The position numbers were made by a program, and so were the translations under genes. Shown here piece after piece: positions 17,066 through 35,065 of a stretch of DNA of 64,000 nucleotides; positions within the stretch are counted from its first letter, which is position 1; the number at the start of each line of letters is the position of its first letter. Source of the DNA: a virus; IMG/VR virus record IMGVR_UViG_3300042924_004713, positions 1 to 64,000 of that record. One strand, given 5' to 3'. Below the pieces are notes generated by a model, which searched no databases, was not told where the DNA came from, and was given only the letters and a program-made list of their open reading frames with translations.

Positions 17066-18124
17066 ATGCAAACACTTGTGATCTATCCCGGCCGTTTTCA
17101 TCCATTTCATCGTGGCCATTTGGCCAGTTATCACTGGCTCACCAAGAAATTTGGGGACAACTCTGTATTTGTGGCCACTTCAGGCAAACAGGAACCCGAA
17201 ACATCTCCGTTTAGCTTTGCAGACAAGCAGATGATGATGGTCAAACTGGGTATTCCCGCAGGACACGTGGTACAGGTCAAAAACCCTTACCAGGCACAGG
17301 AAATCACACAGAACTTTGATCCCAACGACACAGTGTTGATATTTGCTATCAGCGAAAAAGACGCTGAACGCATCAGTTTCAAACCCAAGCGTGATGGATC
17401 GCCTAGTTATCTACAGCCATTTCCTGAAAACGGCAAAGGACTCAAGCCCATGAGTCAGCATGGTTATGCCATACTAACTCCCAAGGTCAACTTCCGTGTA
17501 CAGGGTCAAGACGCAGACAGTGCTAGTCAGATACGCAAACTCTATGCACAAAGCAACGACTCGGGGCGTGACAGTATACTAGTGGATCTCTACGGTGATG
17601 CGGATGGTAATCTAAGAAAGATATTTGATCAACGGTTATTGCAGTCTGATGAAGCAGTGGTCAACGAAACTGTGTTGATCAATGATCCCGAGGCTGGCAT
17701 ACAGCTACGTCCGCCAGGCGGCATGGGCACATGGGATGAATCAAGTCTGGTTAAAAATCTCACCAGCAAGATAACCGATCTCAATAGACTGCTGTCAACT
17801 GGACAATATCGAGCACTATACCAGGTAATCTATGATCGCGGTACCTTGGAAAGCATGATCAAGGCACTGGCTGATCTAGAAAAATTCCGTGAACGTCAGG
17901 GACGTCGTCCCATTGCTCGTGGGCGTCAAATTGATATCAGTGCTGATTACCTTGAAGAAAAATGGAGTGAAAAATACAAACGCAGCATCAACTGCGCCAA
18001 TCCTCGAGGATTCAGCCAAAAGGCACACTGTGCTGGCCGTAAGAAAAACGAAGCCGCACTGGAATCCCTACGCCGTATGAAACAACGCATTCTAGAAATG
18101 CGCAAACGTTCAAAAGCCAAGTAA
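17066..18124 (+). CDS. HxGH nucleotidyltransferase-like domain plus C-terminal modules including a basic two-Cys peptide
   Basis: YPGRFHPFHRGH, SASQIR; tail EEKWSEKYKRSINCANPRGFSQKAHCAGRKK. Confidence 0.75.
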   Translation: MQTLVIYPGRFHPFHRGHLASYHWLTKKFGDNSVFVATSGKQEPETSPFSFADKQMMMVKLGIPAGHVVQVKNPYQAQEITQNFDPNDTVLIFAISEKDAERISFKPKRDGSPSYLQPFPENGKGLKPMSQHGYAILTPKVNFRVQGQDADSASQIRKLYAQSNDSGRDSILVDLYGDADGNLRKIFDQRLLQSDEAVVNETVLINDPEAGIQLRPPGGMGTWDESSLVKNLTSKITDLNRLLSTGQYRALYQVIYDRGTLESMIKALADLEKFRERQGRRPIARGRQIDISADYLEEKWSEKYKRSINCANPRGFSQKAHCAGRKKNEAALESLRRMKQRILEMRKRSKAK

Positions 18125-18182
18125 TTTTCTGCCTCTCTGTGCTACAATTAAATATCAAGCACTTTTTATCAGAGAGGAATTT

Positions 18183-19145
18183 ATGGTTGACCAAACAACA
18201 AACGACAGCGTAGCAGCAGAAAGTCTGCCCGTTGAATCTGCACCTGCTGAAGCACCTGCCGCGGATAACAACTCAACACAAATTCAAGTTAATGTTGATT
18301 TCCTAAGAAAAACTCGAGTACACATCTGCATGCCCTGCTATGGCGGCATGCTCACAGAACAATGCTTTATGAGCTTTGTTAAATGGGGCAATGCCTGCAG
18401 ACAACTGGGCATTGACTGGACTGTGGAAACCATGACCAATGAGAGTCTGATTTCACGAGCACGAAACACACTAGTGGCCAAATTCCTCAGTAATCCAGAA
18501 AGCACACACTTGATGTTTATTGACGCAGACATCGGCTGGGAGCCTTGGCATCTGCTGGCTCTGCTTAACCATGACAAGGATGTTGTGGGAGGTCTTTATC
18601 CCATGAAAACCATTCCTGTGAAATGGTGTGTGAACGGCATTCCTGGTGCTCCAGACAATGACCCCAATGGACTACTAGAAGTTACCAAGACTGGCACAGG
18701 ATTTCTGTTGATCAAACGCGAGGTATTTGAAAAACTCAAGGCACACCCTGCTGTAAAGCCTTTTGCCAATGACATTGGACTTGACGCTAGCCTAGACAAA
18801 GACATGAAAACCTACTTTGACACTGCTGTGCGCGAAAATCGTTACTACAGTGAGGATTGGACCTTCTGCGAAAACTGGCGCGATCTGGGCGGTCAGGTCT
18901 GGGTGGATAAGCGTATTCTTCTGCGTCATGTGGGCACACATACCTTTGATTTCGCTACACAGGAAAACATGTATCGTGAACTGCACAAAGTAGCACAGGC
19001 CAATGGCAAAGCCTTGAACGCCGACAGTGATCTAACACAGCCTGTGCCTGCTCCTGTGGTATCAGGTCCAGAACCAGTGGCTGCTCCTGTGAAAGCTCGC
19101 GTACTAAGCGCCAGCGAGAATCTAGAAACCGAGCCAGCTGCCTAA
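18183..19145 (+). CDS. GT-A-fold glycosyltransferase-like protein
   Basis: ICMPCYGG, ISRARN, LMFIDAD, GTGFLLIKR, SEDWTFC. Confidence 0.75.
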   Translation: MVDQTTNDSVAAESLPVESAPAEAPAADNNSTQIQVNVDFLRKTRVHICMPCYGGMLTEQCFMSFVKWGNACRQLGIDWTVETMTNESLISRARNTLVAKFLSNPESTHLMFIDADIGWEPWHLLALLNHDKDVVGGLYPMKTIPVKWCVNGIPGAPDNDPNGLLEVTKTGTGFLLIKREVFEKLKAHPAVKPFANDIGLDASLDKDMKTYFDTAVRENRYYSEDWTFCENWRDLGGQVWVDKRILLRHVGTHTFDFATQENMYRELHKVAQANGKALNADSDLTQPVPAPVVSGPEPVAAPVKARVLSASENLETEPAA

Positions 19146-19163
19146 ACAATAAATACAGTTCAT

Positions 19164-22100
19164 ATGCATATCGATGAACTGGAAAATTATAATTTAGCCG
19201 ACGCTGTACGATTTCACGACGAGCTGAATCCTGGACTTTGGGGCAAAGACGAACATCTGCGCCCCGAAGTTCGTGAAGCACTGCTGCGCATTGCAGACGA
19301 TTTTCGTGAATTTCTAGGTGTTAGTGATCTTGAAGTTCAAGACATCACTATTTCTGGCAGCAATGCTGCCTATAATTACACCCCCAACAGTGATATTGAT
19401 CTACATCTAGTGGTCAATATTCCCGAGCTTGACGATGAAGTCTATCGCGAATTATTCAACGCGAAAAAATATCAATACAACGATCAGCACGATATTCGTG
19501 TGCGCGACGCTGATGTTGAACTCTATGTGCAACCAGCCAATGATCCGCATATCAGCCAAGGCATCTATAGCCTAGTAAACAACAAGTGGCTGTCAGTTCC
19601 CCGACGTCAACGAGCCAAGATAGATGACGACAGTGTGCGTCACAAGGCCGAAGATCTAGAAGCTAGAATCAATCAGGCCATTGAATCTGGCGATCGTGAA
19701 ACCATGGATCGCTTGTGGCAAAAGATCAAGGACATGCGCAAAAGCGGACTAGAACAAAAAGGTGAATTCAGTACAGAAAACCTAGTGTTCAAGATGCTGC
19801 GTGTGAACAAATTAATAGAACGTCTGCAAACAGCACGTCAAGCAGCACGTGATCAAGAACTCAGCCTTAGCGAAAGAAAACGCAAGAAGTCTCGTAAACG
19901 CTATGCATATGGTGGTTACTGGTATCCAGGCTACAGCTATTATGGCAGCGGTTCTGAAGGCAGTGACAGTGGTGGCGATGGCGGCGGTGAAAGTGTTCAA
20001 GAAGACGTAGGCTCAACCTGGGATGGAGTGAGTCCTACCACAAGAATGTTCACTAGCGAACAAGAACACACTGAAAACAAAAACGTAATTGGTAAATTTG
20101 CTAGATTTGTGGCACAGCAGATAGGCATGAGCAAGTTGCCACGTATCCGTGTCACACGAGATCCAAAATGGAGTTCCAAAAACGGTACATTTGGACACTA
20201 TGATCAAAATACACAAACACTGACCATTAGTCTGGCCAATCGCCATATCATGGATGTGCTTAGAACCATGGCTCACGAGCTAGTGCATGCACATCAGGAT
20301 CGCGAACATGGCTTGCCTAGCACAGCTGGCAAGACTGGTAGTCCATATGAAAACGAAGCCAATGCGGTGGCGGGTCGTATCATGCGACGTTGGGCCAAGA
20401 AACATGGCAATATGTTTGATCAGCCTGCCACAGAAGACTATGATCCCAATGCCAGACCTCCAGGACCTGAAACCAAACCCACTATGCCAGCTGGCACTGT
20501 GAGAGTTGATGTTAGTGATGTGTATGACTGGTACAAACTAGGACAGCACATCAGTGACCTCGAAGGTCTAGGCAAACATGATTTTGGCAAAGGACCGCCT
20601 AGTGCTATTTTTAGTTTTGGTGACGAAGACACCGAACACAAATATATTAACAATCTGAAGCGCACTGGCCTTGATGTCACGGACATTGATCCACGCGATC
20701 CCAATCAGCCGCCAGGCATGAAGAAAATCAAAACAGATCCAACCTATAATGTTGATGAAGATTGGAAAAGCAGTCTAGGTGCAGCAGCCGCGGCTGCATG
20801 TATTGCAGGCACACCAGGCTGTGCTACCACTAACACAGATAGCAGTCCCACTGCTGATGTGCTAAGAGGTGTACAAACTGTAGGACGTACAGCACAGGCA
20901 GTAAAGGACATGGGCGTGGGTGGCGCCAAAGAAGAACTAATCAATCAACTTCGTGACAAACTGCGCGGTATACGTGAAGCCACTGGTTACATTCCCACAA
21001 AAAAACAAGCTCGTGATCCTAGATTCTCCATGGCCTTGACAAAGGATATTCAGCCAGGCCAGATTGGCAAGGAAGCAAACAAACTAAAGTTAGACACTGA
21101 CAGTCAAGGTCATCCTGCGCTGTTAATGAAACGTCTTAACAATCTGCTGGAATCAGTTAAGACAGACGAACAATTAGACGAAGACGAACTGTTTGAACTC
21201 AAAATGAGTCCCAGCAATCTGGCCAAAATGGCCAAAGACATTGATGCTAGAGCTGGTCTAGAGTTTGAAATGTATGTGCCTAATGTAGACGCCGACGACG
21301 AGGAATTTGAATCCGAGCCGGATTACGGTGCCGACGAATATTTCCCTATGGGTCCAGGCTGGCAGAGTGATGTTATGGATTTCTTCCGTGGTGGAGATAT
21401 GAGCAGTCCTAGAGTTCTTATTCAACGGGCAATTGATGAACTAAATGAAAATTTTTATGAGTGGGTTGGCGAGCAAGAAGAAGAGTTTTTAGCATCCAAC
21501 GAAGGACGAGAACGAGCCATAGAAATCGCTACCAGCAATGTAAGCAGAGACGATTTTGAAACAGACGAAGAATATGAAGCTGCCGTTCGCGAATACCTGA
21601 CAGACAATGAAGACGACATTAGAGATGAATTAATAGACGAATTCCGCGATGATCTTGATAGCAAGTTCGAAGAATGGCTAGACGATCAAGGCATTCGTAT
21701 GATGGCAGATTTTGCGAGCGAATACGGTTTAGAATGGCCATATTGGACCGAGCCAGATGATTACAGCAGAGGCGGAGCAGACATCGACGACGTAGCACGA
21801 GACTTCCAAGATGCTGTTGGACGTCCGGTGAAAACTGGTGGTTATCACAGCGGTGCTTATAGTCAAACCAATAACTATCGTGTGGAAACAGACAGTAGCT
21901 TGAGTGATCCAGACGAACCAGGTGATGCAGGCTTGGAGTTTATCAGTCCGCCCTTGACCATTCCTGAGATGCTGGGAGATATCAAAAAGATCACTGCCTG
22001 GGCTAATCGTGTGGGTGCATATACCAATGACACCACTGGCCTACACATGAATATCAGTGTACCAGGGTACAGCATGCAAAAGCTAGACTATGTAAAGTTG

Positions 22101-23975
22101 GCCATGTTCTTGGGCGACAACTATGTTCTAGAGCAGTTTGGTCGTGCAGGAAATACCTATTGCAAGTCAGCCCTGAATAAAATCAAAGCAGAAGTAAAAC
22201 AAGATCCCGCAAGACTCAAAAACATGCTTCAGGCCATGCAGGGAGAATTAAACAGCATAGCCAGCAAAATTGTTCATACCGGCAACACTGACAAATATAC
22301 CAGCATCAACACCAAGGACAATCGTGTGGAGTTTCGCAGTCCTGGCGGCGATTATCTTGACATATTAGCCAACGATCCTGCACAGATCACAAACACACTG
22401 CTGCGCACAGTGGTAGCTTTGGATGTGGCCATGAAACCTGAAGCGTTCCGTCAAGAGTACATGAAAAAGCTGTACAAGACTCTCACACCAACGGAATTCA
22501 CAGGCGGTCGAGGCGAGCGTCAAACTAGATTGGAATCACAGACCAACGAGGTCGCTGACCTGCTCAGCAAGTACATCGCAGGTGAATTGCCGCAGTCAGC
22601 ACTAAAAAGCTTTATCCAGCAGATTAAGAAAAAGCGTGACGATAAGAAGCAGCCACCAGAAACGCAAACACCTAGTCGTGATCAAGAGTTTTCAGGCACT
22701 TGGGAAATTGTGGCTCGTAATACCGACGAAGTAGTACGCCAATTTAGTGGTGTTGGTAATGCCATAAGAGATGCTGAAGTGTGGGCAAGAAGATGGGCAA
22801 TGGATACCGGATATGATGATCCGTACTATGTGCGCCCTGTAATGCGACCAAGAACCGCGCCACCTGAAACCTCCATTTATCAAATTGTAAACTACCAAGA
22901 CGGTGAAGTGTTAAGTCCGGGACTAAACATGCCTTGGGTTTATGCTCGTGCTCTTGCTGATGATATAGCTCGGCGTCGTGGTATGGGTAGAGCCGACATC
23001 AGAATTGTTGACCTAGAAAACAATCAGACCTATAGTTTTGAAGGTAGACTGATACAGCCAAGTGTGAGAGCCACTGCCGGGGAACCTGTACCAGCTGGTA
23101 GTGTAGGTGGTGGATTCGCTCGAGCACCACATACCAGCATATATCAATTGATTGATAATAGAAATGGTCAAATAATGCTAGGCGGCGAAACAAGAACTTT
23201 TGCTGACACCGTAGAGAAGGCCAATATTTTAATGCGTGACTATAGGCTTACAGCTGATGATATTAGAATTGTTGATATGTATACCAATACTGTATATGAT
23301 ATCAATGGTCGTCCTGTAAGTGGCAACAATGCTAATACTTCTAGCATAGATGGCGAGCAAAGCACAGATGCCAACTACGAAATCATTGATCTTGAAACTC
23401 GTGGACCAGTTTTTAGATTCATTGCCAACACCGATCAAGAAGCACAGAGAAAGTTTATAGATTGGTTGGAAGCAGGTGATCGCTTTATTGGCCAGTATTA
23501 TTGGCGTAGAATTGAAGGTCGTGGCATACCAGGGTCAACAGCAGAACTGCAACGACAGCGATCAGATCAGCAAGTACAAGGTTTTAGAGTCTCTTATACC
23601 GTTACCCATGACGATGAAGTTAGAAATAACACTGTGACTATTCAAGCCCGTAATGCTGACGCTGCAATGGATGTTATGAGAACTAATTTACAACGGGCTG
23701 GATATGAGGTTCTTAGAATTGAAGCTGAACCTGTGGCACAAACTCTAGAGCCACCACCAGAAACAGTAGATATTTCAATGCCCGGTCAGGCTCGCGGAAC
23801 AGAAAGCTTACCACCCGGCAACACTCGCTGGTTGATACTTGATCCAAACGACCGTGAAGTATATAGTTTTGTACATCGTAGTAATCAAGGCGAAGCAAAT
23901 CAATATGCTGTGAACTGGCTAAGACAAAACGGTCTACTAGGCAGTGGCGAATTCATGGTGGTGCCAGCAAGATGA
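19164..23975 (+). CDS. Large polyvalent protein: Pol-beta nucleotidyltransferase, HExxH metallopeptidase, putative amidoligase, C-terminal repeats
   Basis: GSNAAY..SDIDLH; MAHELVH..E.EANA; GLEFE, GLEFISPP, TGLHMNIS, VEFR; duplicated TSIYQ...DIRIVD modules. Confidence 0.8.
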   Translation: MHIDELENYNLADAVRFHDELNPGLWGKDEHLRPEVREALLRIADDFREFLGVSDLEVQDITISGSNAAYNYTPNSDIDLHLVVNIPELDDEVYRELFNAKKYQYNDQHDIRVRDADVELYVQPANDPHISQGIYSLVNNKWLSVPRRQRAKIDDDSVRHKAEDLEARINQAIESGDRETMDRLWQKIKDMRKSGLEQKGEFSTENLVFKMLRVNKLIERLQTARQAARDQELSLSERKRKKSRKRYAYGGYWYPGYSYYGSGSEGSDSGGDGGGESVQEDVGSTWDGVSPTTRMFTSEQEHTENKNVIGKFARFVAQQIGMSKLPRIRVTRDPKWSSKNGTFGHYDQNTQTLTISLANRHIMDVLRTMAHELVHAHQDREHGLPSTAGKTGSPYENEANAVAGRIMRRWAKKHGNMFDQPATEDYDPNARPPGPETKPTMPAGTVRVDVSDVYDWYKLGQHISDLEGLGKHDFGKGPPSAIFSFGDEDTEHKYINNLKRTGLDVTDIDPRDPNQPPGMKKIKTDPTYNVDEDWKSSLGAAAAAACIAGTPGCATTNTDSSPTADVLRGVQTVGRTAQAVKDMGVGGAKEELINQLRDKLRGIREATGYIPTKKQARDPRFSMALTKDIQPGQIGKEANKLKLDTDSQGHPALLMKRLNNLLESVKTDEQLDEDELFELKMSPSNLAKMAKDIDARAGLEFEMYVPNVDADDEEFESEPDYGADEYFPMGPGWQSDVMDFFRGGDMSSPRVLIQRAIDELNENFYEWVGEQEEEFLASNEGRERAIEIATSNVSRDDFETDEEYEAAVREYLTDNEDDIRDELIDEFRDDLDSKFEEWLDDQGIRMMADFASEYGLEWPYWTEPDDYSRGGADIDDVARDFQDAVGRPVKTGGYHSGAYSQTNNYRVETDSSLSDPDEPGDAGLEFISPPLTIPEMLGDIKKITAWANRVGAYTNDTTGLHMNISVPGYSMQKLDYVKLAMFLGDNYVLEQFGRAGNTYCKSALNKIKAEVKQDPARLKNMLQAMQGELNSIASKIVHTGNTDKYTSINTKDNRVEFRSPGGDYLDILANDPAQITNTLLRTVVALDVAMKPEAFRQEYMKKLYKTLTPTEFTGGRGERQTRLESQTNEVADLLSKYIAGELPQSALKSFIQQIKKKRDDKKQPPETQTPSRDQEFSGTWEIVARNTDEVVRQFSGVGNAIRDAEVWARRWAMDTGYDDPYYVRPVMRPRTAPPETSIYQIVNYQDGEVLSPGLNMPWVYARALADDIARRRGMGRADIRIVDLENNQTYSFEGRLIQPSVRATAGEPVPAGSVGGGFARAPHTSIYQLIDNRNGQIMLGGETRTFADTVEKANILMRDYRLTADDIRIVDMYTNTVYDINGRPVSGNNANTSSIDGEQSTDANYEIIDLETRGPVFRFIANTDQEAQRKFIDWLEAGDRFIGQYYWRRIEGRGIPGSTAELQRQRSDQQVQGFRVSYTVTHDDEVRNNTVTIQARNADAAMDVMRTNLQRAGYEVLRIEAEPVAQTLEPPPETVDISMPGQARGTESLPPGNTRWLILDPNDREVYSFVHRSNQGEANQYAVNWLRQNGLLGSGEFMVVPAR
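22869..23320 (+). repeat. Diverged tandem protein repeat (2 copies, about 60 aa)
   Basis: TSIYQIVNYQDGEVL...ADIRIVDLENNQTYSFEGR vs TSIYQLIDNRNGQIM...DDIRIVDMYTNTVYDINGR; boundaries approximate. Confidence 0.75.
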
Positions 23976-25549
23976 GAGCCAGCGAGTTTATTGTAGAATC
24001 AAAGATACCTGATGTGGTCTATCACGGCACGGCATCTGCCAACCTCACCAACATAATGAAACACGGTATCAAACCCAAGTTAAATCGTTATGCATACTCC
24101 AATAGACAACACGGTGGCGGAATAGCAACAGGTTTAGAACTAGAGCCAGGTAAACGTAGAAGTGATTTAGAAACTATCAGCACCAGTGTGAACTTTGACA
24201 ACAGTTTAGAGTATGCCAAATTGGGTGGCAGCACAGGTTCAGGCTCTCCTGGCGTGGTACTAGCGTTTCGTCCATTGCCCAGTGATAGCTTTGAAGAAAC
24301 CGGCATGCCTGGTGAAGTTGTATTCCGCAATGCTATCTCTCCAGATAGACTACAAATAGTCTGGCCCCAACGACTAGCGGGCAAAGAAAAACAACTCGCA
24401 CAAAAAGCCGAAAAGAAAAAACAATCAGGTGCTGAAAAAACACAGCAGATCAAAAGCATTAACCAGCAACTCAAAGCCGCAGGTTCTAGTATAAGAATCA
24501 AGTCAACCAACCCTAATACTGCAAGAATTGCCATATGGTTTATGGATCCTGACAACCCTGTACAGGTAGGCAACACCAACATAGATGATCAAAATTTCGC
24601 AGTATTCTTGAAAAAAGAACTAGCTAACCCTGCACCCAACAAACAACGCTATTATGGTAGAACCAATTGGTTAAATGAATTCGCTCCTGAAGGATTTGAG
24701 CAATACAGTTTATACACCGGTGATGGTGTTAGAAATCATTTAGTTGATAAATTTTCGTCATTAAACGCAGCCAAGGAAGAAGTTGAGTTTATATGGGACT
24801 CAGATCCCGAAGCTCGTCTGGCTATATGGTTTATTAAAAATCTAAATGATGAAGTGGTGTGGTCCTATGATCCACAGGAAATAGCGGATGCGCCAAGATA
24901 TCAGTTTAGAAAAAAATCTGATGATCTTGAAGAAATGAATCGTAGAGGATTCCTAGGAGCCATGGGAGCAGGTGCAATGGCTGCTGCGGGAGTTCCCTCA
25001 CAAGCAGCTAACAAGGTGGGACCACCCATGCTCAGTGCCAACATTGGTGCAGAAGAGGCTCTTCATCGTGCGGCTCGTGCTGCTGGCATACGTGGCGTGG
25101 AACTTGCGCAGTTTCTAGCACAGTGTTATCATGAGTCTGGCGGCTTTAAATACATGCAAGAACTAGGTGATCCACGTTATTTTCTACGATACGATCCTAG
25201 AGTAGATCCTGCCAAGGCACGTGTGCTAGGTAATGTAAAGCCAGGAGATGGTGAACGCTACAAGGGTCGTGGATTTATACAGATCACTGGCAGAGATAAC
25301 TATCGTAGAGCCGGTGAAGCTCTGGGTCTGCCCTTGGAAGACCGGCCAGAACTCGCAGCTAGAATGGATGTGGCAGCACGTATTGCAGTATGGTATTGGA
25401 AACAAAGAGTCAAGCCCAATGTGTCTAATTTCAATGACACTCGTGCGGTGACTCGGCAAATCAATCCCAACATGCGCGGTCTTGAAGATCGACATGAAAA
25501 TTTCAAAGACTATAAAAAGGTCTTTAGTATGAATTGGAAAGCTGTATGA
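23972..25549 (+). CDS. Polyprotein: ADP-ribosyltransferase-fold domain, middle module, Tat-signal-like segment and GH19 lysozyme
   Basis: VYHGT..STS..YA..EVVF; EEMNRRGFLGAMGAG; AQCYHESGGF, YKGRGFIQITG. Confidence 0.8.
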   Translation: MRASEFIVESKIPDVVYHGTASANLTNIMKHGIKPKLNRYAYSNRQHGGGIATGLELEPGKRRSDLETISTSVNFDNSLEYAKLGGSTGSGSPGVVLAFRPLPSDSFEETGMPGEVVFRNAISPDRLQIVWPQRLAGKEKQLAQKAEKKKQSGAEKTQQIKSINQQLKAAGSSIRIKSTNPNTARIAIWFMDPDNPVQVGNTNIDDQNFAVFLKKELANPAPNKQRYYGRTNWLNEFAPEGFEQYSLYTGDGVRNHLVDKFSSLNAAKEEVEFIWDSDPEARLAIWFIKNLNDEVVWSYDPQEIADAPRYQFRKKSDDLEEMNRRGFLGAMGAGAMAAAGVPSQAANKVGPPMLSANIGAEEALHRAARAAGIRGVELAQFLAQCYHESGGFKYMQELGDPRYFLRYDPRVDPAKARVLGNVKPGDGERYKGRGFIQITGRDNYRRAGEALGLPLEDRPELAARMDVAARIAVWYWKQRVKPNVSNFNDTRAVTRQINPNMRGLEDRHENFKDYKKVFSMNWKAV

Positions 25550-26274: not shown

Positions 26275-26275
26275 A

Positions 26276-27357: not shown

Positions 27358-27377
27358 AAACATTTAGGAACTAGACC

Positions 27378-28475
27378 ATGCGCTTACACGAAATTCAACA
27401 ACAGCGTAGACCGCATCTTTTTCTTGACATGGATGGTGTTCAAGCAGACTTCTTTTCAGCCTGGGCACGCTTGTTTGGCAAAGAACGCTACAAAGAAATA
27501 GGCAATCGCGCACAACGCGAAGCCACTATCGCAGATCTCAATGCACGTGGTCCTGAATTTGTAGAAGAATTCTTTACAAACTTGCCTGTGTTGCCTGGTG
27601 CGCAGACTCTAATTAAGTTTCTACGTGACAATGATATCAAGTACACAATTCTAAGTGCGCCGCTGCGTGGCAACGAAGCTGCTAGTATCCGCGGAAAGTT
27701 GGCATGGTTAGATCGCCATCATCCTGGCACATCTGCCACTGCGATCTTCACAGGCGAAAAACAACGCTATGCCACTACCAATGGTGAACCAAATGTGCTA
27801 GTTGATGACTTCAAGAAATATGTGAATGCCTGGACCGCAGATGGTGGCATTGCTGTGCTGTATCGTTGGAATAATGTTGGCGCTGCAATTGAACAGTTGA
27901 AAAAGATCTATGGATTAGAGCCAGGTGCTCAGGTCAACAGTCTTGATGCATTACAAGAGGCAGTGGTAGGCACGCTGTATCCTAAAAAAATACTAGGCAC
28001 TGCTAGAGTAGGTGACTTGTCTATTCCTATACACCGTCATCTATATGATCAAGCGCAGAGCCGTGGAATTGATCTAAAAACCATAGAACGCACACTGCGT
28101 AGACTGCCCAGAATAGCCAGCAAACTCAAAAAAATTGAAGCAGGAAACAAGGTATGGGTTTACAACCCTCACGATGAAATTAGTCTAGGCTTTTTTGCAC
28201 TGGACAGTGGTGGATATTTGTTGAACACAGTGATTCCCAATGCGCCACATCAACAGGGAGTTACTGATGTGATACGCATGTATGAAGCAGACATTGAAGA
28301 AAATTTTGCAGACGGTAAAGTCAAGGGCCGGAGCCGGCCTGGGCGTGTAAAACGTGCGGGTGCCAGTTGTGATGGCAGTGTAACCAGTTTAAGAGCCAAG
28401 GCCAAAAAATACAGCGGCGAACGAGGTCGAATGTACCATTGGTGTGCAAACATGAAATCAGGACGTCAAAAATGA
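27378..28475 (+). CDS. HAD-family 5'(3')-deoxyribonucleotidase-like domain plus two extra modules
   Basis: LFLDMDGV, ILSAP, K, LVDD; tail ENFADGKVKG...C...HWCANMKSGR. Confidence 0.8.
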   Translation: MRLHEIQQQRRPHLFLDMDGVQADFFSAWARLFGKERYKEIGNRAQREATIADLNARGPEFVEEFFTNLPVLPGAQTLIKFLRDNDIKYTILSAPLRGNEAASIRGKLAWLDRHHPGTSATAIFTGEKQRYATTNGEPNVLVDDFKKYVNAWTADGGIAVLYRWNNVGAAIEQLKKIYGLEPGAQVNSLDALQEAVVGTLYPKKILGTARVGDLSIPIHRHLYDQAQSRGIDLKTIERTLRRLPRIASKLKKIEAGNKVWVYNPHDEISLGFFALDSGGYLLNTVIPNAPHQQGVTDVIRMYEADIEENFADGKVKGRSRPGRVKRAGASCDGSVTSLRAKAKKYSGERGRMYHWCANMKSGRQK

Positions 28476-28894
28476 GAGACCTACTTAATATACTAGAAGC
28501 AGTGAGCCGCGGCTGTCCTCCTGCAACACAAGACATTGATCTTAATCTAAAGAATCGTCAGAAGGCCATAGAAGAATATCATTATGGCCCGCTGAATCCC
28601 AATGAACCCAATGAAGAATACTGGGCTGAACTAGCCGACAAATGGAATACCAGTGATATTGAATCTGTAAAACAGAATCGCTGTGGCAACTGTGCTGCAT
28701 TTGACATCTCAGAAAAAATGCTGGACTGCATTGCCACTGGTATTGGTGCAGAACCCGGATCAGATCCACATGATACCATAGATGCTGGTCAGCTAGGCTA
28801 CTGTAAGTTTTTGAAATTCAAATGTGCTGCCAAGCGTACCTGCGATGCCTGGGTAGAGGGTGGTCCTGTGACAGGAGAAAAAAATGAGAGCTAA
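28472..28894 (+). CDS. Cys-rich protein with HiPIP-like Cys spacing
   Basis: RCGNCAAF...GYCKFLKFKCAAKRTCDAW. Confidence 0.55.
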   Translation: MRDLLNILEAVSRGCPPATQDIDLNLKNRQKAIEEYHYGPLNPNEPNEEYWAELADKWNTSDIESVKQNRCGNCAAFDISEKMLDCIATGIGAEPGSDPHDTIDAGQLGYCKFLKFKCAAKRTCDAWVEGGPVTGEKNES

Positions 28895-29258
28895 AGAATT
28901 TGTAAAAAAGTCCGCCACTGAAGCTGAAATGCCCTGGAAGGATGCAGTGGATGCAGGTGCCATGACCACACAACAGGGTGCCAAAATAGCTGCCAGTGAT
29001 ATTTCTCAAGCCATTGGTGATTTGGAAAAAAATCAAGCTGCCATTGGTAAAGAAATTGCCACACAAAGAGCTGCTGCCAATTCAGTGCCCTCCAACGTAC
29101 AAGTGACCAGCATGAAGCCAGATGGCAGTTGGACCGGACGTGAGCTACCCAAAACTACTAAAATTGGTCCTATTTCAATTACACGAGGCAGCGGTAATCC
29201 TGTAGCCGGCGGTGCAGTGAAAAAAGCACCACCTGCCTATCCCCCAGGCGCCATCTAA
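28884..29258 (+). CDS. Hypothetical protein with MRAKEF tag
   Basis: SD AGGAG; ORF. Confidence 0.65.
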   Translation: MRAKEFVKKSATEAEMPWKDAVDAGAMTTQQGAKIAASDISQAIGDLEKNQAAIGKEIATQRAAANSVPSNVQVTSMKPDGSWTGRELPKTTKIGPISITRGSGNPVAGGAVKKAPPAYPPGAI

Positions 29259-29323
29259 AAATACACCTGCTGATTTCAGGCCACTAAGTACCAGGCGAAA
29301 ATTCGCTTTTTATAGGAGACTTT

Positions 29324-30262
29324 ATGGCAACCAAAAAACCGGCCAAAAAAACAGCAGCGCCAGCTAAGAAAGCAGCCGCTCCTGTAGCCAAAAAACCCGT
29401 GGCAAAAGCAGCCAAGGCCAAACCCAAGGCTCGAGCCAAACCCCGTGCGCAGGTAGTTGAAGCTGTGGAACAGGAACTGGAATTCAAACCAGTGAGCAGT
29501 TTCTTGAGCATGCATGCTGCCATGGATCCCGAGGCACAAGCAGCCATGATCGCAGAGCAGACCAAACGTGCGTTTGATGTTGAAGCCTATGTACAATTTA
29601 ATGTGGCTCAAACACAGGTAGCAAGATCAATCGTTGAAGAAAACGTCACTGACGCCATGCAGAGCTGGGCTATCAATGCCGGTGGTAATCGTGAAATGAT
29701 CATGCGTACCACAGACGATGTTTATCGCAATCGTCTCATGATGTTGAATCTGTTGAAGCCCGAGAATCCTGTGGAAGCAGCGTTTCAGGAAAGCATGATC
29801 AACAAGACCAAACTGGAATATCTGCAACATCGTAATGTCATGAACCGTCGCATGGCTGATATTGCATATGAAATGGCCAATGCTATCAAGGCCATTGGTG
29901 CAGCGTCGGAGAAATTCTATAATGCCAACGAAGAAATGGCAGCATTTATCAACGACACCGCAGACGAAAATGCAGTATGGTTTGATGGTGAGCTGCGTAA
30001 AATGATGCGTGAAGCCTCAAATGTCACAAATGATCAGCGTATTCAGCACACCATGGAAGTGAGTCAGCTGCTAGCAAATGATGCACAAACAGGCCGTGCT
30101 CGTATTCGCGAAGTTGCAGAATTTGCACAGGGTCTTGGTGACAGTCTGCAGGAACTGCAAGAGTCAGGCAATGAACTGCGCGAAGAAGTGATTAATATTC
30201 GTGAAAAGATCGACGCAGGTCAACGCCGTATCGCTGACACCATTGTAAACAAGCGTAAATAA
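29324..30262 (+). CDS. Coiled-coil protein with histone-H1-like Lys/Ala/Pro N-terminus
   Basis: KKPAKKTAAPAKKAAAPVAKK; SD AGGAG; TAAGTA upstream. Confidence 0.75.
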   Translation: MATKKPAKKTAAPAKKAAAPVAKKPVAKAAKAKPKARAKPRAQVVEAVEQELEFKPVSSFLSMHAAMDPEAQAAMIAEQTKRAFDVEAYVQFNVAQTQVARSIVEENVTDAMQSWAINAGGNREMIMRTTDDVYRNRLMMLNLLKPENPVEAAFQESMINKTKLEYLQHRNVMNRRMADIAYEMANAIKAIGAASEKFYNANEEMAAFINDTADENAVWFDGELRKMMREASNVTNDQRIQHTMEVSQLLANDAQTGRARIREVAEFAQGLGDSLQELQESGNELREEVINIREKIDAGQRRIADTIVNKRK

Positions 30263-30264
30263 AT

Positions 30265-30516
30265 GTGGCCCAGATACGTTGGTGCTGGCGTTGGTACGAT
30301 GGACATACCGCAGTAGCTAGAAACAGTCTGCGTAGGTCCCGTATACTAAACCAGTTACGCCGTATACATAGACAACACCCCGCTTTGAAATTCACAGTCA
30401 AACGCGGGGAGTTTTTTATAGAAGCATGGTTTGTGGATACAAATGATCTGCTGATATTTGCTTTGATATGGCCACCAACTTGTCCTGTGTGGGAGAAATT
30501 TGATGATATTTCCTGA
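30265..30516 (+). CDS. Hypothetical protein
   Basis: ORF fills the gap between genes. Confidence 0.5.
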   Translation: MAQIRWCWRWYDGHTAVARNSLRRSRILNQLRRIHRQHPALKFTVKRGEFFIEAWFVDTNDLLIFALIWPPTCPVWEKFDDIS

Positions 30517-30787
30517 TATGCCTAAACGTCAACACTGGTGGGATCAACACACTGAACCTGTGTCGCCAGTTGCAGTTGAAACCCACACTGTGGTTGTGCC
30601 AGAACTCACGGCTGTCAGCGCCGAAGAATGGTTTGCCAAACATTTTCCAGACACAGTGCCCACAGCTTTGCCCAGTCACCGTGAGCCTTTTGACTGGCGT
30701 AAAGATCCACGGGGCACAGCAGAATTTGCTGCGCTGTGTGGGTTCTTGATAGCATGGGTAGCCTACTGGTATCAAGTATCTCACTAA
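30503..30787 (+). CDS. Hypothetical protein with C-terminal TM helix
   Basis: ORF; hydrophobic C-terminus. Confidence 0.5.
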   Translation: MIFPDMPKRQHWWDQHTEPVSPVAVETHTVVVPELTAVSAEEWFAKHFPDTVPTALPSHREPFDWRKDPRGTAEFAALCGFLIAWVAYWYQVSH

Positions 30788-30794
30788 ATAATTG

Positions 30795-31010
30795 ATGCGC
30801 TTGAATGAACTATTTGAAAACTTGGTACAAAACTATGATCTATACCAAGCTCAGGTGAAAATACAGCAGCCTGGTTATCTAGGACGTATCAACGTCACGG
30901 TGAGTGCGCCCAGCGCCGCTGCGGCACGAGCACTGATCAAAGCACAGTATAATGTAAAAACACATGATATTGGCCAAGTTCGTCGCATGCCCGCAGGAAA
31001 GAAACTATAA
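30795..31010 (+). CDS. Small protein with MRLNELFE tag
   Basis: TAAATA 30785-30790 directly upstream. Confidence 0.7.
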   Translation: MRLNELFENLVQNYDLYQAQVKIQQPGYLGRINVTVSAPSAAAARALIKAQYNVKTHDIGQVRRMPAGKKL

Positions 31011-31432
31011 TGCGTGCTAGAGAGTTTGTTCCAAGAGCCTGGTATGTAACAGTAAACGGTGATCCTGGCATTCTCACAAGAAACACCACACCTGGTGAAC
31101 AGCCCTGGAGAGTCACTTGGTTTGATAGAGAAGATCATGAACCCAATGGTCACACGGACATCAGCAAACTACAAGCCCGTCAGATTCAACGCGGTAACAA
31201 CATAGAAGTTGTAGATCAAGACATAATTTACTATATAGATGCCGGTGAAGAACTTGCGGAAAACAGTTTGTTCTGGCGCCAATATCCTTGTACCAAAGAC
31301 TGTTCAGGTCACCAAGCAGGTGATTCCTGGGCACAGGCACGCGGTATCACAGATGTAACACAATGCCCTCCTGGCAACAGCAACAGCTGGTGGGAAGGCT
31401 GCAAAAGCGAAGCCGAAAAACGTCCTTATTAA
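31010..31432 (+). CDS. Two-module protein with MRAREF tag and Cys-rich tail
   Basis: CTKDCSGHQAG...C...WWEGC after ELAE. Confidence 0.7.
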   Translation: MRAREFVPRAWYVTVNGDPGILTRNTTPGEQPWRVTWFDREDHEPNGHTDISKLQARQIQRGNNIEVVDQDIIYYIDAGEELAENSLFWRQYPCTKDCSGHQAGDSWAQARGITDVTQCPPGNSNSWWEGCKSEAEKRPY

Positions 31433-31435
31433 GCT

Positions 31436-33334
31436 ATGAAACAAAATGTGTATCTTTATGCTCCTAACTTTGAGTCAGGACATGGAAATGTAACGTCGGT
31501 GTGGCTACCCTATACAGTGGGCTGTATCTGGAGTTACGCCATGACCGATCAAAGGCTACGAGATAACTTTAATTTGTGTGGTCTTGGGTTCCTGCGTGAT
31601 CCAGTTGATCAAGTGGTTGATAGTCTTGACAACCCAGCGGTGTGTGGATTTAGTACCTATATCTGGAACGAAAACTACAACCTTGCTCTCAGTAAGGCTA
31701 TCAAGCAAAGGTATCCCAATTGCTTGATCTTGTTTGGTGGTCCTAATGTGCCCAATGAAGAAGAAGTTCTGCGACAGTGGCGCAAGGATCATGCCTGGAT
31801 TGATGTATCCATTAGATACGAGGGAGAAATTGCGTTTAAAAATGTGTTGCATGATATTCTTGACAACAAGGTCAAAAGAGACTATGTGGCACATAGAGTA
31901 GAAGATCTTGAAGTGCCTAGTCCTTATCTAACCGGACTGTTTGACGACATTGTCAAAGACAAACAATTCATGTACTCCATGACCATTGAGACCAATCGTG
32001 GTTGTCCATTTCCCTGTACCTTTTGCGACTGGGGTAGTTTGACCTATGCCAAGATCAAGAAATTTCCCTTGGAAAAAGTTTTTGCAGAAATAGAGTGGTC
32101 AGGACGTAACCAAATTGAGTTTATTAGTCTAGCTGATGCTAACTTTGGCGTGTTTCCTGAGCGTGATCAAGCCATTGCCGAATGTTTTATTGAAACCAAG
32201 AAAAAATATGGGTATCCACAGCAGATCAGTTGTACATGGTACAAAAACTCCAATGAAGTAATTTTAAACATAGCCGAGGATCTTACACGTCATGGCCTAA
32301 ACCGTGGACTCACACTAAGTGTACAAAGCATGCACGAGCCCACGCTCACTGCTATCAAACGCAAGAACATGAAGATCAATGATCAGAGTCTGCTGTTTCA
32401 AGAATGCAATCGTAGACACATACCTTTTTATACCGAGCTGATTCTAGGCATGCCCGAAGAAACACTGGCCAGCTGGCGTCAAGGCCATTTGGATCTAATT
32501 GAAATGGGCCAGCATGGTTGTGTGTACATGGCTCCCATTGAGCTGCTGCGCAACGCAGAAATGACCAAACAGATTGATCAGTACAAGATCAAAAGCACAG
32601 TGATATCTGACTATTGGACCTGTGCTCGCAGCGGTATCAGCGAGTGCCAACACATAGCCACGGAAACCAATACCATGTCCACTGATGACATGATAGATGC
32701 TACTATTTTTTCCTGGATGATAATTTCATTTCATCATCACGGCTGGACAGAGCTATATTCAAGATATCTACACAAGCGTGGCTGGAGCTACAAACAGATC
32801 TACGATAATCTTGAAACATGGTTAATGAGCCACCCTTACTACAGCCAACAAATAGCAAAGTTTAGAAGCACAGTGAGTGATTTTTACCATCACAGTAGAA
32901 GCATTGAATACTATGCTCTCTGGGAAGGCGTAAAAAACATGTATGTGGATAGACAACAACATCTTGACAACATAGCAGCATGGTTTCAAACTCTTTGTCA
33001 AGATGACTGCTGCGATGAAATAATTGAACTACAAAGGCATTGGATAATTGATCCATATGGAACCAGTAAGAACACAGTGGAACTGCCCAGTAACTTGATC
33101 TATTGGATATTAGATCTAGAACCCGTGGTAACCAAATCCCCCATACAGTGTGAATTTTCCACTAGCCAAACCGAGTCATGGGCTAACCTAGAGGAGTTCC
33201 TGAGTTTTGTTGTGCTACGCAGAAAAGAAAGTTTTGGCAAAGCCATTGTTAATATTTTGCCGCAACAAACACCAGCTGATTTTGAACTAAATATGGAATG
33301 TCCAATGACATTGTCAAACTTGTCTGTAAGCTAG
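31436..33334 (+). CDS. B12-binding-domain radical SAM protein
   Basis: GFSTYIWN, GGP, EGE, RGCPFPCTFC (CxxxCxxC), DANFG, ELILGMPEET. Confidence 0.9.
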   Translation: MKQNVYLYAPNFESGHGNVTSVWLPYTVGCIWSYAMTDQRLRDNFNLCGLGFLRDPVDQVVDSLDNPAVCGFSTYIWNENYNLALSKAIKQRYPNCLILFGGPNVPNEEEVLRQWRKDHAWIDVSIRYEGEIAFKNVLHDILDNKVKRDYVAHRVEDLEVPSPYLTGLFDDIVKDKQFMYSMTIETNRGCPFPCTFCDWGSLTYAKIKKFPLEKVFAEIEWSGRNQIEFISLADANFGVFPERDQAIAECFIETKKKYGYPQQISCTWYKNSNEVILNIAEDLTRHGLNRGLTLSVQSMHEPTLTAIKRKNMKINDQSLLFQECNRRHIPFYTELILGMPEETLASWRQGHLDLIEMGQHGCVYMAPIELLRNAEMTKQIDQYKIKSTVISDYWTCARSGISECQHIATETNTMSTDDMIDATIFSWMIISFHHHGWTELYSRYLHKRGWSYKQIYDNLETWLMSHPYYSQQIAKFRSTVSDFYHHSRSIEYYALWEGVKNMYVDRQQHLDNIAAWFQTLCQDDCCDEIIELQRHWIIDPYGTSKNTVELPSNLIYWILDLEPVVTKSPIQCEFSTSQTESWANLEEFLSFVVLRRKESFGKAIVNILPQQTPADFELNMECPMTLSNLSVS

Positions 33335-33585
33335 ATTGCCGCTGGGAAGGGCTTGCCCCAACCTATCGCGCCTGGGTCAACAATGAGCTGTTTACCGAAC
33401 GCACTTGGATTTGGACTGAAAACTATATTGAAGAAATATTTCAAGTCAAGGCCATACCCGGAAAATACCGTATTAGATTTGAGTTGGTACAGCCCTGTCT
33501 AGCGGACTTGATTTTTCTAGAAATGCGAGCATTGCACGGTCCAGTGCGTGTAAAAAGTGGTGGCATATTTTTGATTGATTCTTAA
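33298..33585 (+). CDS. Hypothetical protein
   Basis: TAAATA 33288-33293 upstream. Confidence 0.6.
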   Translation: MSNDIVKLVCKLDCRWEGLAPTYRAWVNNELFTERTWIWTENYIEEIFQVKAIPGKYRIRFELVQPCLADLIFLEMRALHGPVRVKSGGIFLIDS

Positions 33586-33586
33586 C

Positions 33587-33763
33587 ATGAGAGCAAGAGA
33601 ATTCATAGGCGAAGATGTATCAACTACCAGCGCCAGTATTGCCCCGGTTGCACAGAGCCTGGGACACATGCCAATGATCAGTCGCATGGGCCGAGTGCCT
33701 ACTGTGCATAAATATCAGACTAGAAAACCTAAACGGACTAAAAATGCTGGCAGAATCGCTTAA
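33587..33763 (+). CDS. Small basic protein with MRAREFIGE tag
   Basis: Shared N-terminal tag. Confidence 0.65.
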   Translation: MRAREFIGEDVSTTSASIAPVAQSLGHMPMISRMGRVPTVHKYQTRKPKRTKNAGRIA

Positions 33764-34187
33764 AACTATATTGGCTTCAAGCTACGCTTATGTGATCAAA
33801 GCGCAGTTTTTTCATTGGAACGTAGAAGGGCCTGACTTTGCTCAACTGCATGATTTCTTTGGCAAGATCTACGAAGAAGTCTATGACAATTCCATTGATC
33901 GCTGTGCTGAATTCATCAGAGTACTTGATGACTACGCTCCGGGTAGTTTTGAACGATTCGCGGAACTGTCTATTATATCTGGACAAATCAAAGTACCTCG
34001 TGCTCGACTCATGCTGGAAGAACTATTACAAGATACAAATAATATGTTGGCATTGTTAAACACTGCGTTTCAAGAAGCAGATGCAGATCAACAGCAAGGT
34101 ATTGCTGACTTTCTGGCCGAACGAATTGACGCCATGGGCAAACATCGTTGGATGTTGAGATCGTTTCTCAAGGAAGCACGAGCATGA
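33744..34187 (+). CDS. dps: Dps/ferritin-family protein
   Basis: HWNVEGPDFAQLHDFF, DRCAE, KHRWML. Confidence 0.92.
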   Translation: MLAESLKTILASSYAYVIKAQFFHWNVEGPDFAQLHDFFGKIYEEVYDNSIDRCAEFIRVLDDYAPGSFERFAELSIISGQIKVPRARLMLEELLQDTNNMLALLNTAFQEADADQQQGIADFLAERIDAMGKHRWMLRSFLKEARA

Positions 34188-35065
34188 ACGATATCTACAC
34201 CATCCTAGCCAGACTGGAAGCCATACAAGAAGGCAGTACCACGCCAACTAAACTGTCAAAAGATCTCAACCCGCAACAAAAAGCAGTGCCTCAATTGCCT
34301 GCTCTGTTCAAGCCTAATAAGATTTCAGTTCTGGGTGCCAAAACTGATCCAGATCATCCCATGCGTGGTTACGCAGTGGGTGCAAGTGAAAGTGCTGAAA
34401 CCGAAGTAGAAGAAGACTGGCGCAGTGCCGCAGCAGCAGGTGCATTGGCCGCTGCTAACCTTCTGGGTACACCGGCTCAAGCAACAGAACCTGTGAAACC
34501 AATCACAGTAGCGCATGTGACCATAGATGGTGAAACACGCACATACAATCTTGGTGATAGATTTAAAAGTTCCAAAGAAGCAGAAAAGTTTATCAGCGAT
34601 GTACTAGATCGTCAAGGGCTGTCAGGTTACAGTCTTGACATCAAGACCGGCGTGCCAAAGAACACAGACAGCACAGCAATGAAAGAACAAATAATCGCAG
34701 CCGAAGACATGCTGGGCAAAATACGTCGTGACTTAGCAGATTACCTCCGCAGCGTAGAAGATGAACTAGTGGGACGAGATAGATCACTGATACGCAAGGC
34801 CAAGCAAGAACTCGCCAAACCTGACATTGAAAAGTTTCTACCAGTCAAAGTTATCAGCACCGACGATGGTAAAGAACTCAGAATACATGGCAACGAAGAC
34901 GATGGATTTAGAATCAGTGTGCATGAAAAAATGCTACCCACTGCATTTGAAAGCCTTGAAGAAGCCAGCATGGCCTGCGAAATGTACTGTGCTCGTAGGC
35001 GTGGCCAGCCCATGGAAGCCAATCCAGACTACGTGGATGAGCGCGACAGCACAGCAAAGCATTAG
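34184..35065 (+). CDS. Modular hypothetical protein with internal signal-peptide-like segment
   Basis: MNDIYTILARLEAIQE; internal VEEDWRSAAAAGALAAANLLGTPAQA. Confidence 0.7.
   Translation: MNDIYTILARLEAIQEGSTTPTKLSKDLNPQQKAVPQLPALFKPNKISVLGAKTDPDHPMRGYAVGASESAETEVEEDWRSAAAAGALAAANLLGTPAQATEPVKPITVAHVTIDGETRTYNLGDRFKSSKEAEKFISDVLDRQGLSGYSLDIKTGVPKNTDSTAMKEQIIAAEDMLGKIRRDLADYLRSVEDELVGRDRSLIRKAKQELAKPDIEKFLPVKVISTDDGKELRIHGNEDDGFRISVHEKMLPTAFESLEEASMACEMYCARRRGQPMEANPDYVDERDSTAKH

Follow-up and report, generated by a model that had tools for sequence, protein, structure and literature searches.

The internal head proteins of phage T4 are a diverse set whose sole common feature is the capsid targeting sequence (CTS) (PMC3012670). 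This short peptide brings all of them into the core, and the protease gp21 cuts after Glu; Alt is cleaved at ITE-6 and LTE-619 (PMC5694885). The genes for T4 internal proteins are known to be variable (PMC4122927). Polyvalent proteins, mosaics of 2–15 shuffled effector domains, are also predicted to be packaged in heads and injected (Iyer, Burroughs, Anand, de Souza and Aravind 2017, PMC5512222). Described here is a probable T4-type capsid targeting system, enlarged and modular, in an uncultured giant freshwater phage lineage. It is found in a gene island at nt 17066–35065 of the window, a 64,000 nt stretch of viral DNA (positions 1 to 64,000 of IMG/VR record IMGVR_UViG_3300042924_004713), and, by analogy with T4, its products are probably packaged in the head, cleaved into pieces and delivered into the host as a large repertoire that can be exchanged.

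The window makes up the first 64 kb of a contig of 166 kb whose completeness is estimated at 48%. Its source is an uncultured T4-related giant freshwater (lake) phage with a genome of about 350 kb, distant from T4. No paper was found in the literature that describes the tag in these phages, or a protease-site rule at the borders of polyvalent proteins.

The N-terminal tag and its carriers

Ten gene starts within nt 23972–33763 share the consensus M-R/K-x-x-E-F/I/L-x-x-E, and the proteins behind them are without similarity to one another. They are listed here together with two of their internal junctions; a slash marks a tag end or a module border.

23972–25549, + strand: tagged cargo gene, 525 aa; MRASEFIVE/ tag, ADP-ribosyltransferase (ART)/Tpt1-like domain (aa 10 to ~240), LNE236/, middle module, LEE321/, Tat-like (twin-arginine translocation) hydrophobic segment, GH19 lysozyme-like domain
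24926–24934, + strand: codons of junction LEE321/ inside 23972, aligning with IAE/, the tag end of a stand-alone tagged GH19 protein
25546–26274, + strand: tagged cargo gene, 242 aa; MKITEFVTE/, basic DUF6321 module (DWQKTNRK...), C-terminal part of no known family
26276–26812, + strand: tagged cargo gene, 178 aa; MRAQEFLKE/, acidic, no known family
26812–27357, + strand: tagged cargo gene, 181 aa; MRASEFIAE/, basic
27378–28475, + strand: tagged cargo gene, 365 aa; MRLHEI start, NT5C 5'-nucleotidase domain, LQE194/, middle module, IEE308/, basic NFADGK two-Cys module
28293–28301, + strand: codons of junction IEE308/ inside 27378, aligning with ILE/ of the stand-alone tagged MKVSEILE/NFADG
28472–28894, + strand: gene with a diverged tag, 140 aa; MRDLLNILE/A
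28884–29258, + strand: tagged gene, 124 aa; MRAKEF, start MRAKEFVKKSATEAE, no Glu at position 9
30795–31010, + strand: tagged gene, 71 aa; MRLNELFE/N
31010–31432, + strand: tagged gene, 140 aa; MRAREFVPR, no Glu site just behind the tag
33587–33763, + strand: tagged gene, 58 aa; MRAREFIGE/D, strongly basic (isoelectric point 11.6)

All ten starts read exactly as an earlier note on this DNA had given them when it reported near-identical starts on otherwise unrelated proteins. ART/Tpt1-like and GH19 domains (23972), DUF6321 (25546) and the NT5C nucleotidase (27378) are recognisable among the cargo, while the other seven proteins belong to no known family. The tag ends in hydrophobic-x-Glu in seven of the ten genes (IVE, VTE, LKE, IAE, ILE, LFE and IGE). 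The pattern is incomplete in 30795 (one residue shorter), in 28472 (diverged; its homologues start MRDILNMLE, MRNFINLLE and MRDLINLME) and in 27378, 28884 and 31010, where the final Glu is missing; in 28884 the sequence offers ATE13 or EAE15 as possible candidate sites. The canonical tag is absent from 17066, 18183, 19164, 29324, 31436, 33298, 33744 and 34184, i.e., the region 17066–35065 is not uniformly tagged. Similar starts claimed by the same note at 2064 and 2609 were rejected as tags, the former lying within a longer open reading frame (ORF) whose homologues begin elsewhere, and the latter having no homologues.

Scanning all six frames of the 166-kb contig for MR..E[FILV] yielded 11 matches, eight of which are gene starts inside 23972–33587. 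The other three (a 14-aa ORF, a 33-aa ORF and one internal position) look like chance. The codons of the tag vary from gene to gene (Arg as AGA, CGC or CGT; Ala as GCC, GCA or GCT; Ser as AGC or TCT) and the DNA 5′ of the tagged start codons shows no relatedness among genes, so the tag is conserved at the level of the peptide.

The tag had been likened to the T4 CTS, and the starts read from the T4 record (AF158101) bear this out. The T4 internal proteins (IPs) IPII and IPIII start MKTYQEFIAE/A, IPI starts MKTFKEFTSTTTPVSTITE/A, and Alt starts MELITELFDE. The MRASEFIAE of 26812 has EFIAE in common with IPII and IPIII, and the MRLNELFE of 30795 resembles the start of Alt.

When IMG/VR was scanned with a DNA pattern encoding MRAxEFIxE, at least 144 matches were found at no fewer than 120 loci. 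All 144 matches listed are ORF starts, with a median of 7 open codons upstream, and the 132 complete tagged ORFs among them have a median length of 128 aa, none being shorter than 30 aa. Stripped of their tags, the listed proteins group into about 30 unrelated cargo clusters, including GH19+LysM, ParB_N+DUF6886, a kinase-like protein and DUF6934. Applied to 596 Gb of bacterial and archaeal genomes, this DNA pattern matched only 56 times; just 24 of these matches are start-like, and several of the 24 represent the same phage families binned in metagenome-assembled genomes (MAGs). In bacterial genomes the tag is thus rare and mostly out of context. On these sequence comparisons the tag is phage-specific and heads some 30 unrelated families of cargo.

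Tagged phage genes in MAG contigs were seen in one Haliscomenobacter MAG (L166, L201, L205), one Fischerella MAG (L164, L191, L206) and a Polynucleobacter MAG (L187). These contigs are probably mis-binned phage DNA and, by themselves, no evidence of a host.

The commonest tagged family accounts for 76 of 142 proteins among the matches listed. Its members are 117–141 aa long and mostly occur as tandem pairs, both ending ...SP-x-x-x-FKGYPR (G003 263121–263878, which is L139, and L007, L008, L009, L029, L033, L066 and L069). The family was not found in the 166 kb of the source contig, and may correspond to the abundant IPs of T4.

In a complete relative (G003, 353 kb) the flanking genes of the island are kept (DnaJ-like, Clp-like, NMN (nicotinamide mononucleotide) adenylyltransferase-like, the 18183 homologue, the polyvalent protein, Dps and the 34184 homologue), and the tagged genes at that position have been replaced almost completely, a turnover that matches the known variability of the T4 internal-protein genes.

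Homologues of 26812 on two other contigs also carry the tag. An Atlas search with 26812 returned only weak leads, to ADP-ribosyltransferase-like clusters, and in cultured phages no matches were obtained by megablast of the region or by tblastn of 26812 and of a 117–141 aa member of the commonest family.

Head protease and module borders

A gp21-like protease, which the earlier note had expected elsewhere in the genome, is encoded on the same contig. It belongs to a head module at the far end, about 125 kb away from the island, in which portal, core protein, protease, scaffold and capsid protein are arranged in T4 order (contig positions).

158200: portal gene
159948: small ORF
160263: acidic core protein
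161175–161813: gp21-type S77 prohead protease
161827: gp22-like scaffold
162932: gp23-like capsid protein

The S77 protease matches PF03420 (91.4 bits, E 4e-27, contig 161235–161675) and is 36% identical to T4 gp21; the capsid protein is 31% identical to T4 gp23, and its ILE34 and LKE42 immediately precede the first conserved block, close to the position of T4 LTE65/A. Judged by the protease, the closest cultured phages (50–57% identity) are Sinorhizobium phage Phosso, Pseudomonas phage PA5oct, Salicola phage SCTP-2 and RaK2-like coliphages. An S77 protease is encoded by five of five near-complete tag carriers (340–525 kb), and three of five incomplete carriers have one as well; ten carriers of middle size represent fragments (11–27%) of similarly sized genomes.

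Junctions between modules are found in the tagged proteins listed above and in three untagged neighbours.

17066–18124, + strand: untagged NMN-adenylyltransferase-like enzyme with a C-terminal basic two-Cys module (KWSEKYK...)
17951–17959: junction LEE298/ of 17066, joining the enzyme to the KWSEKYK module
19164–23975, + strand: untagged polyvalent protein, 1603 aa, whose start MHIDEL equals the tag at positions 1, 5 and 6 only; N-terminal layout: nucleotidyltransferase, K/R-Tyr/Gly-acidic linker to VQE280/, HExxH metallopeptidase-like module, ATE424/; C-terminal layout: module, VDE532/, DW+hydrophobic segment, IRE605/, LFE678/, Amidoligase_2 module, C-terminal repeats
34184–35065, + strand: untagged 293-aa protein with a conserved amphipathic start
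34406–34414: junction VEE77/ of 34184, followed by DW and an Ala/Gly-rich hydrophobic segment

The modules of these proteins recur in proteins of other contigs in many different combinations. Borders were located by stripping the tag and searching by BLAST with the cargo alone, a border being counted where a module stands no more than 2 residues behind the tag in one protein and is internal in another. Among the tag-selected loci, 28 non-redundant borders were obtained, with Glu at P1 in 20 (background 6.4%, p 2e-18) and [LIVMF]-x-E at 16 (background 1.8%, p 3e-21). P3 is hydrophobic in 61% of the 28, compared with 4–18% at neighbouring positions.

A test independent of the tag used the DUF6321 part of 25546, without its tag, as a HMMER query against 1.84 billion representatives, giving 3001 matches. 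The module is internal in 136 of the best 150 of these, and the border register was set for the GE-NWSKH subfamily before counting. P1 is Glu at 134 of the 136 borders, and P3 is V, L, I or M, hence [LIVM]-x-E, at 130 (background 2.2%). A tag-like nonamer is kept at just 3 of the 136, so the borders have only the cleavage part of the tag in common. The proteins themselves start M[RK]xx[EDQN][FILVM] in 85 of the 136 cases. The same border rule recurs in at least 10 unrelated module families. The shuffling breaks at Glu sites that had been predicted for relatives are thus present, [LIVM]-x-E standing at 16/28 and 130/136 borders in the two tests.

Within the island, the ten junctions listed here, out of 14 internal sites pointed out earlier, have comparative support.

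17066: LEE298/K
19164: VQE280/D, ATE424/D, VDE532/D, LFE678/L
23972: LNE236/F, LEE321/M
27378: LQE194/A, IEE308/N
34184: VEE77/D

Of the rest, IRE605/A (19164) coincides with a similarity break only, VNE201/T (17066) and VAE123/D (25546) have no more than a nearby break of this kind, and MSE194/A (25546) is a candidate site. The support is most direct where an internal site aligns with the end of a tag, as in DYLEE298/KWSEKYK (17066) against MRAGEFITE/AWSEKYK, the same module standing behind the tag in locus L040; DDLEE321/MNRRGFLG (23972) against MRAVEFIAE/IDRRGFLG; and DIEE308/NFADGK (27378) against MKVSEILE/NFADG. Further alignments pair ALQE194/AVVG (27378) with MRLFEIEYQQFLSVCE/ATVG, and ELFE678/LKMSP (19164) with MRAQEFEPKKQLDE/IAMNP. 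ATE424/DYDPN and TYNVDE532/ of 19164 reappear in L047 beside other neighbouring modules, and VQE280/ closes a linker cassette that recurs across many contigs. Stand-alone tagged homologues of 23972 cover aa 1 to ~243 of the protein; they are 257–260 aa long and end about 7 residues beyond LNE236.

In an AlphaFold2 model of one such homologue, tag residues 1–11 lie outside the fold with a predicted local distance difference test score (pLDDT) of 36. The model of the full 23972 protein was poor (mean pLDDT 45) and uninformative on the junctions, and a Foldseek search with the stand-alone homologue gave only weak KptA/Tpt1 rows (E ≥ 0.09).

[LIV]-x-E occurs in tagged proteins at 0.83 of expectation (weighted, 29 clusters), compared with 1.17 in untagged proteins of the same genomes (z -2.55), and the controls [LIV]-x-D, -K and -Q show no depletion. 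Such a depletion would be expected of proteins exposed to a protease with this specificity.

Several recurrent elements accompany the junctions. The linker cassette (window 19870–20003; 19164 aa 236–280) has three parts, a run of K/R, a Tyr/Gly-rich stretch (YGGYGYY) and an acidic Gly run that ends GGGES-V/I-x-E/; it stands straight behind tags as well as between modules, and is also present in L011, L047, L048, L059, L085, L092 and L117. The HExxH module behind it (MAHELVHAHQ; window 20004–20435, 19164 aa 281–424) recurs in L005, L079 and L091, and stand-alone HExxH proteins of 128–140 aa have tag-like starts (MRARHFLCE, MKIRDLLFE). A motif E/DW(K/R) with an Ala/Gly-rich hydrophobic segment recurs right behind cut-type sites (DWKSSLGAAAAAACIAGTPGCA, DWRSAAAAGALAAANLLGTPAQA), at 20760–20830 (19164 aa 533–556), at 34415–34485 (34184 aa 78–100) and in L011 and L052, and may be a membrane-inserting or lipoprotein-like piece.

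Between LEE321/ and the GH19 domain of 23972 lies the Tat-like segment MNRRGFLGAMGAGAMAAAGVPSQAA (window 24935–25010, aa 322–346). The same Tat-like+GH19 module stands directly behind the tag in locus L012 (MRAVEFIAE/IDRRGFLG), and an untagged stand-alone GH19 protein in locus L115 starts MSRRNFMKGAAA. Cutting at LEE321/ would, from the sequence, expose an export signal on a wall hydrolase.

The untagged NMN-adenylyltransferase-like enzyme is repeatedly fused through [LI]-x-E to two-Cys modules, either KWSEKYK or DUF6321 (P0042 and P0052 are alike in this). A second N-terminal motif, MS-x-I-L/F-K-G-L-(x)-N-E, heads about 10 polyproteins with an internal DUF6321 (P0010, P0011, P0018, P0020, P0021, P0028, P0034, P0037, P0041 and P0057) and may be a second address tag; the amphipathic start of the 34184 family (MNDIYTILARLE, MSNDIRHILDRL) resembles it.

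Other genes lie among the tagged ones. An untagged 312-aa protein in mid-island (29324–30262) begins with a Lys/Ala/Pro-rich stretch resembling histone H1 (MATKKPAKKTAAPAKKAAAPVAKKP...), behind which lies a helical region. A B12-binding radical-SAM enzyme (31436–33334) and a Dps/ferritin-like protein (33744–34187) are also present; Dps is kept at the island edge in many relatives, and the radical-SAM gene is not.

T4-like cyanophages carry, between their terminase genes, a 427-aa protein in which the same small modules are joined at INE/S, VDE/A, VSE/G and TNE/D. It is labelled structural in some records, and a small ORF near it starts MKSFQDFLQE.

Proposed delivery by the prohead and competing explanations

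By analogy with T4, the island probably encodes a cargo set that is loaded into the prohead by the tag, cut by the S77 protease at the tags and at [VLIM]-x-E junctions, and injected. The nonamer M-R/K-x-x-E-F/I/L-x-x-E would be the lineage's own CTS, by which a freshly synthesised protein docks on the prohead's scaffolding core, and its last three residues, [ILV]-x-E, would be the S77 site, with the tag being removed after shell closure. The longer proteins would consist of independently shuffled modules linked by a bare [VLIM]-x-E site, and these chains would be cut into separate pieces within the prohead. The predicted products include the ART/Tpt1-like enzyme, the GH19 wall hydrolase, the 5'-nucleotidase, the metallopeptidase-like module, the amidoligase and small basic two-Cys peptides, which would stay packaged alongside the DNA until infection and then pass into the host. 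Core binding, cleavage, virion retention and injection we infer from T4. The tag, its conservation as a peptide, its likeness to the CTS, its restriction to phages and the range of its cargo are observed directly, as are the protease gene, the [LIVM]-x-E border rule and the depletion of the motif inside tagged proteins.

Several findings weigh against this reading. The tagged proteins 27378, 28884 and 31010 have no Glu at position 8–9 and no site directly after the tag. Conversely, junction sites are present in 19164, 17066 and 34184, which lack the canonical tag; their entry into the head might be through their basic modules or through variant N-termini (MHIDEL, MNDIYTILARLE), or might not occur at all. 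As worded, the claim of the earlier note that one tag loads a polyprotein therefore does not fit these three; every part of the note's reading that is open to a sequence test turned out as predicted. The head genes lie about 125 kb from the island, whose late expression is hypothetical, and the T4 late-promoter motif TATAAATA occurs only three times in 166 kb, giving no indication of expression timing. A pattern scan of five cultured relatives found no tag in PA5oct, SCTP-2, ph0011 and Hallingskeid. The single candidate was MRYNEFSKE of Phosso (237360–237602, L149), the start of an 80-aa hypothetical protein encoded just upstream of the Phosso head module, and with this one match the virion proteomes of the five relatives are not usable. 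The flanks within a single module family are partly inherited (e.g., EQGVAE/DW), and the 136 DUF6321 borders are not independent events; an internal site could travel together with its module. DUF6321 is also present in small Pelagibacter and cyanobacterial podophages, and the modules are therefore older and more widespread than the head-delivery route.

The strongest rival, which we regard as unlikely, accepts the tags as a CTS that is removed, and takes the internal [LIVM]-x-E sites to be uncut, either remnants of fused tags or the modules' own flanks, so that multi-domain proteins would be packaged and injected whole, a mode proposed for many polyvalent proteins. Some polyvalent proteins are delivered unprocessed according to Iyer et al. 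2017 (PMC5512222), a complete internal tag is kept in one library protein (MKIEEFINE/DW), and the context of the DUF6321 borders beyond the site itself (P5 Gln in 54/136, P6 Glu in 47/136) suggests descent. However, anything of the tag beyond its last three residues is kept at no more than 3 of the 136 borders, whereas Glu at P1 and V/L/I/M at P3 have been kept (134 and 130 of 136) through much sequence divergence. The rule also holds in ten or more unrelated module families, and the depletion of [LIV]xE elsewhere in tagged proteins would be expected if the sites are cut.

Considerably less probable is that tag and junctions serve a machine other than the head, either the HExxH metallopeptidase-like module, which would bring about autoprocessing within the cytoplasm or once delivered, or a radical-SAM maturase reading a shared leader. 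The HExxH module of 19164, also found in stand-alone tagged proteins, does count against processing by the prohead protease as an alternative processing enzyme, and autoprocessing of polyvalent proteins by metallopeptidases has been proposed (PMC5512222); but its Pfam matches (DUF6782, M78, M76) are weak and below cut-off (E about 0.01–0.1), and Glu cleavage with a hydrophobic P3 is a known habit of the gp21 family, the tag being nearly the T4 CTS. The B12-binding radical-SAM gene lies between tagged genes here, but no homologue of that gene occurs in 1.05 Mb surrounding the tags of 120 loci, and the best one in the complete relative G003 is 47 kb away from the tags. The leader reading was rejected for this lack of co-location.

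It is highly improbable that the starts are alike as nucleic acid (a region for translation initiation, or a cassette for recombination such as the T4-type promoter early stem-loops, PeSLs) and not as a peptide signal. In favour of this view, stop and start codons of the tightly coupled island genes overlap, and T4-type hyperplastic regions do shuffle via conserved regulatory DNA (PMC4122927). Against it, synonymous and six-fold-degenerate codons vary freely under a constant peptide, upstream DNA is unrelated, and the tag Glu aligns with internal Glu residues remote from start codons; it is the codon pattern that excludes this explanation.

Beyond delivery by the prohead as set out above, we tentatively raise a bolder view, in which the prohead protease is the processing station of a combinatorial delivery system. 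One tag would admit a chain of modules, the bare [VLI]-x-E linkers would be cut, and the N-termini created by cutting would re-address the pieces, as with the Tat-like signal before GH19 or the DW+Ala/Gly segments of 19164 and 34184. Small basic two-Cys modules (DUF6321, KWSEKYK and NFADGK) would serve as DNA-binding carriers and bring untagged enzymes, e.g., NMN adenylyltransferase, into the head with them. Were this right, sequence alone would reveal what thousands of uncultured T4-related phages inject.

Phage-injected proteins are known for a handful of model phages, and they decide the first minutes of infection (anti-restriction, host takeover, wall breaching). If tag-directed loading and cutting are as proposed, the tag and border rule would allow candidates for injection to be listed from sequence alone for uncultured T4-related giant phages, many families without an assigned function would be flagged as likely early effectors or anti-defence proteins, and the processing of polyvalent proteins would fall to the head protease rather than to peptidase domains of their own. 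The island also suggests natural tag and linker parts for putting foreign proteins into phage heads, a use to which the T4 CTS has already been put.

Comparison with known systems

Phage P1 also loads defence-countering proteins (DarA, DarB, DdrB) into its head, some of them proteolytically processed, and injects them (PMC9024508, PMC5512222). Loading in P1 follows an ordered hierarchy of protein-protein contacts with no common short tag, and its head protease is of an unrelated family (PMC9024508).

The phiKZ-like giants (phiKZ, 201phi2-1, SPN3US) have many head-internal proteins, the inner-body and ejection proteins, that are cut after Glu in a three-residue motif, sometimes at several sites, and paralogues with common N-terminal propeptides (PMC5694885, PMC10052503). 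They differ in having an S80 protease, a small P3 (A/S/G-x-E) and long propeptides, and neither a universal nonamer nor a module-border rule has been described for them; the protease here is S77 and P3 at the borders is V/L/I/M in 130/136.

With polyvalent proteins the island shares nucleotidyltransferase, ART, lysozyme, metallopeptidase and amidoligase-type domains in mosaic chains. The mosaicism is evident in 19164, where several unrelated effector domains (NTP_transf_2, the HExxH module and Amidoligase_2) occupy one chain, in 23972 (ART/Tpt1-like + GH19), and in the recombination of modules in other contigs. However, the processing proposed for polyvalent proteins is by their own metallopeptidase domains, and neither a shared head tag nor prohead-protease sites at borders were described (PMC5512222). 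Polyvalent genes adjoin portal, MuF or terminase genes, and the island genes do not, although in T4-like cyanophages the homologous module protein does lie between terminase genes.

The closest likeness is to the T4 internal proteins IPI, IPII, IPIII and Alt, which have a short N-terminal tag ending in [IL]-x-E. As in the T4 CTS system (Mullaney and Black 1996, cited in PMC5694885; review PMC3012670), a gp21-family protease is encoded in the same genome. In both, the cargo proteins have the tag alone in common and differ in content between close relatives, and an ART-type enzyme is among them, T4 Alt being internally cut at LTE-619. The island tag is one residue shorter and begins MRA instead of MKTY. 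Whereas T4 has four scattered genes, at least ten tagged genes are gathered here in a single island, and only here are there large enzymes, multi-module chains and bare protease sites at module borders.

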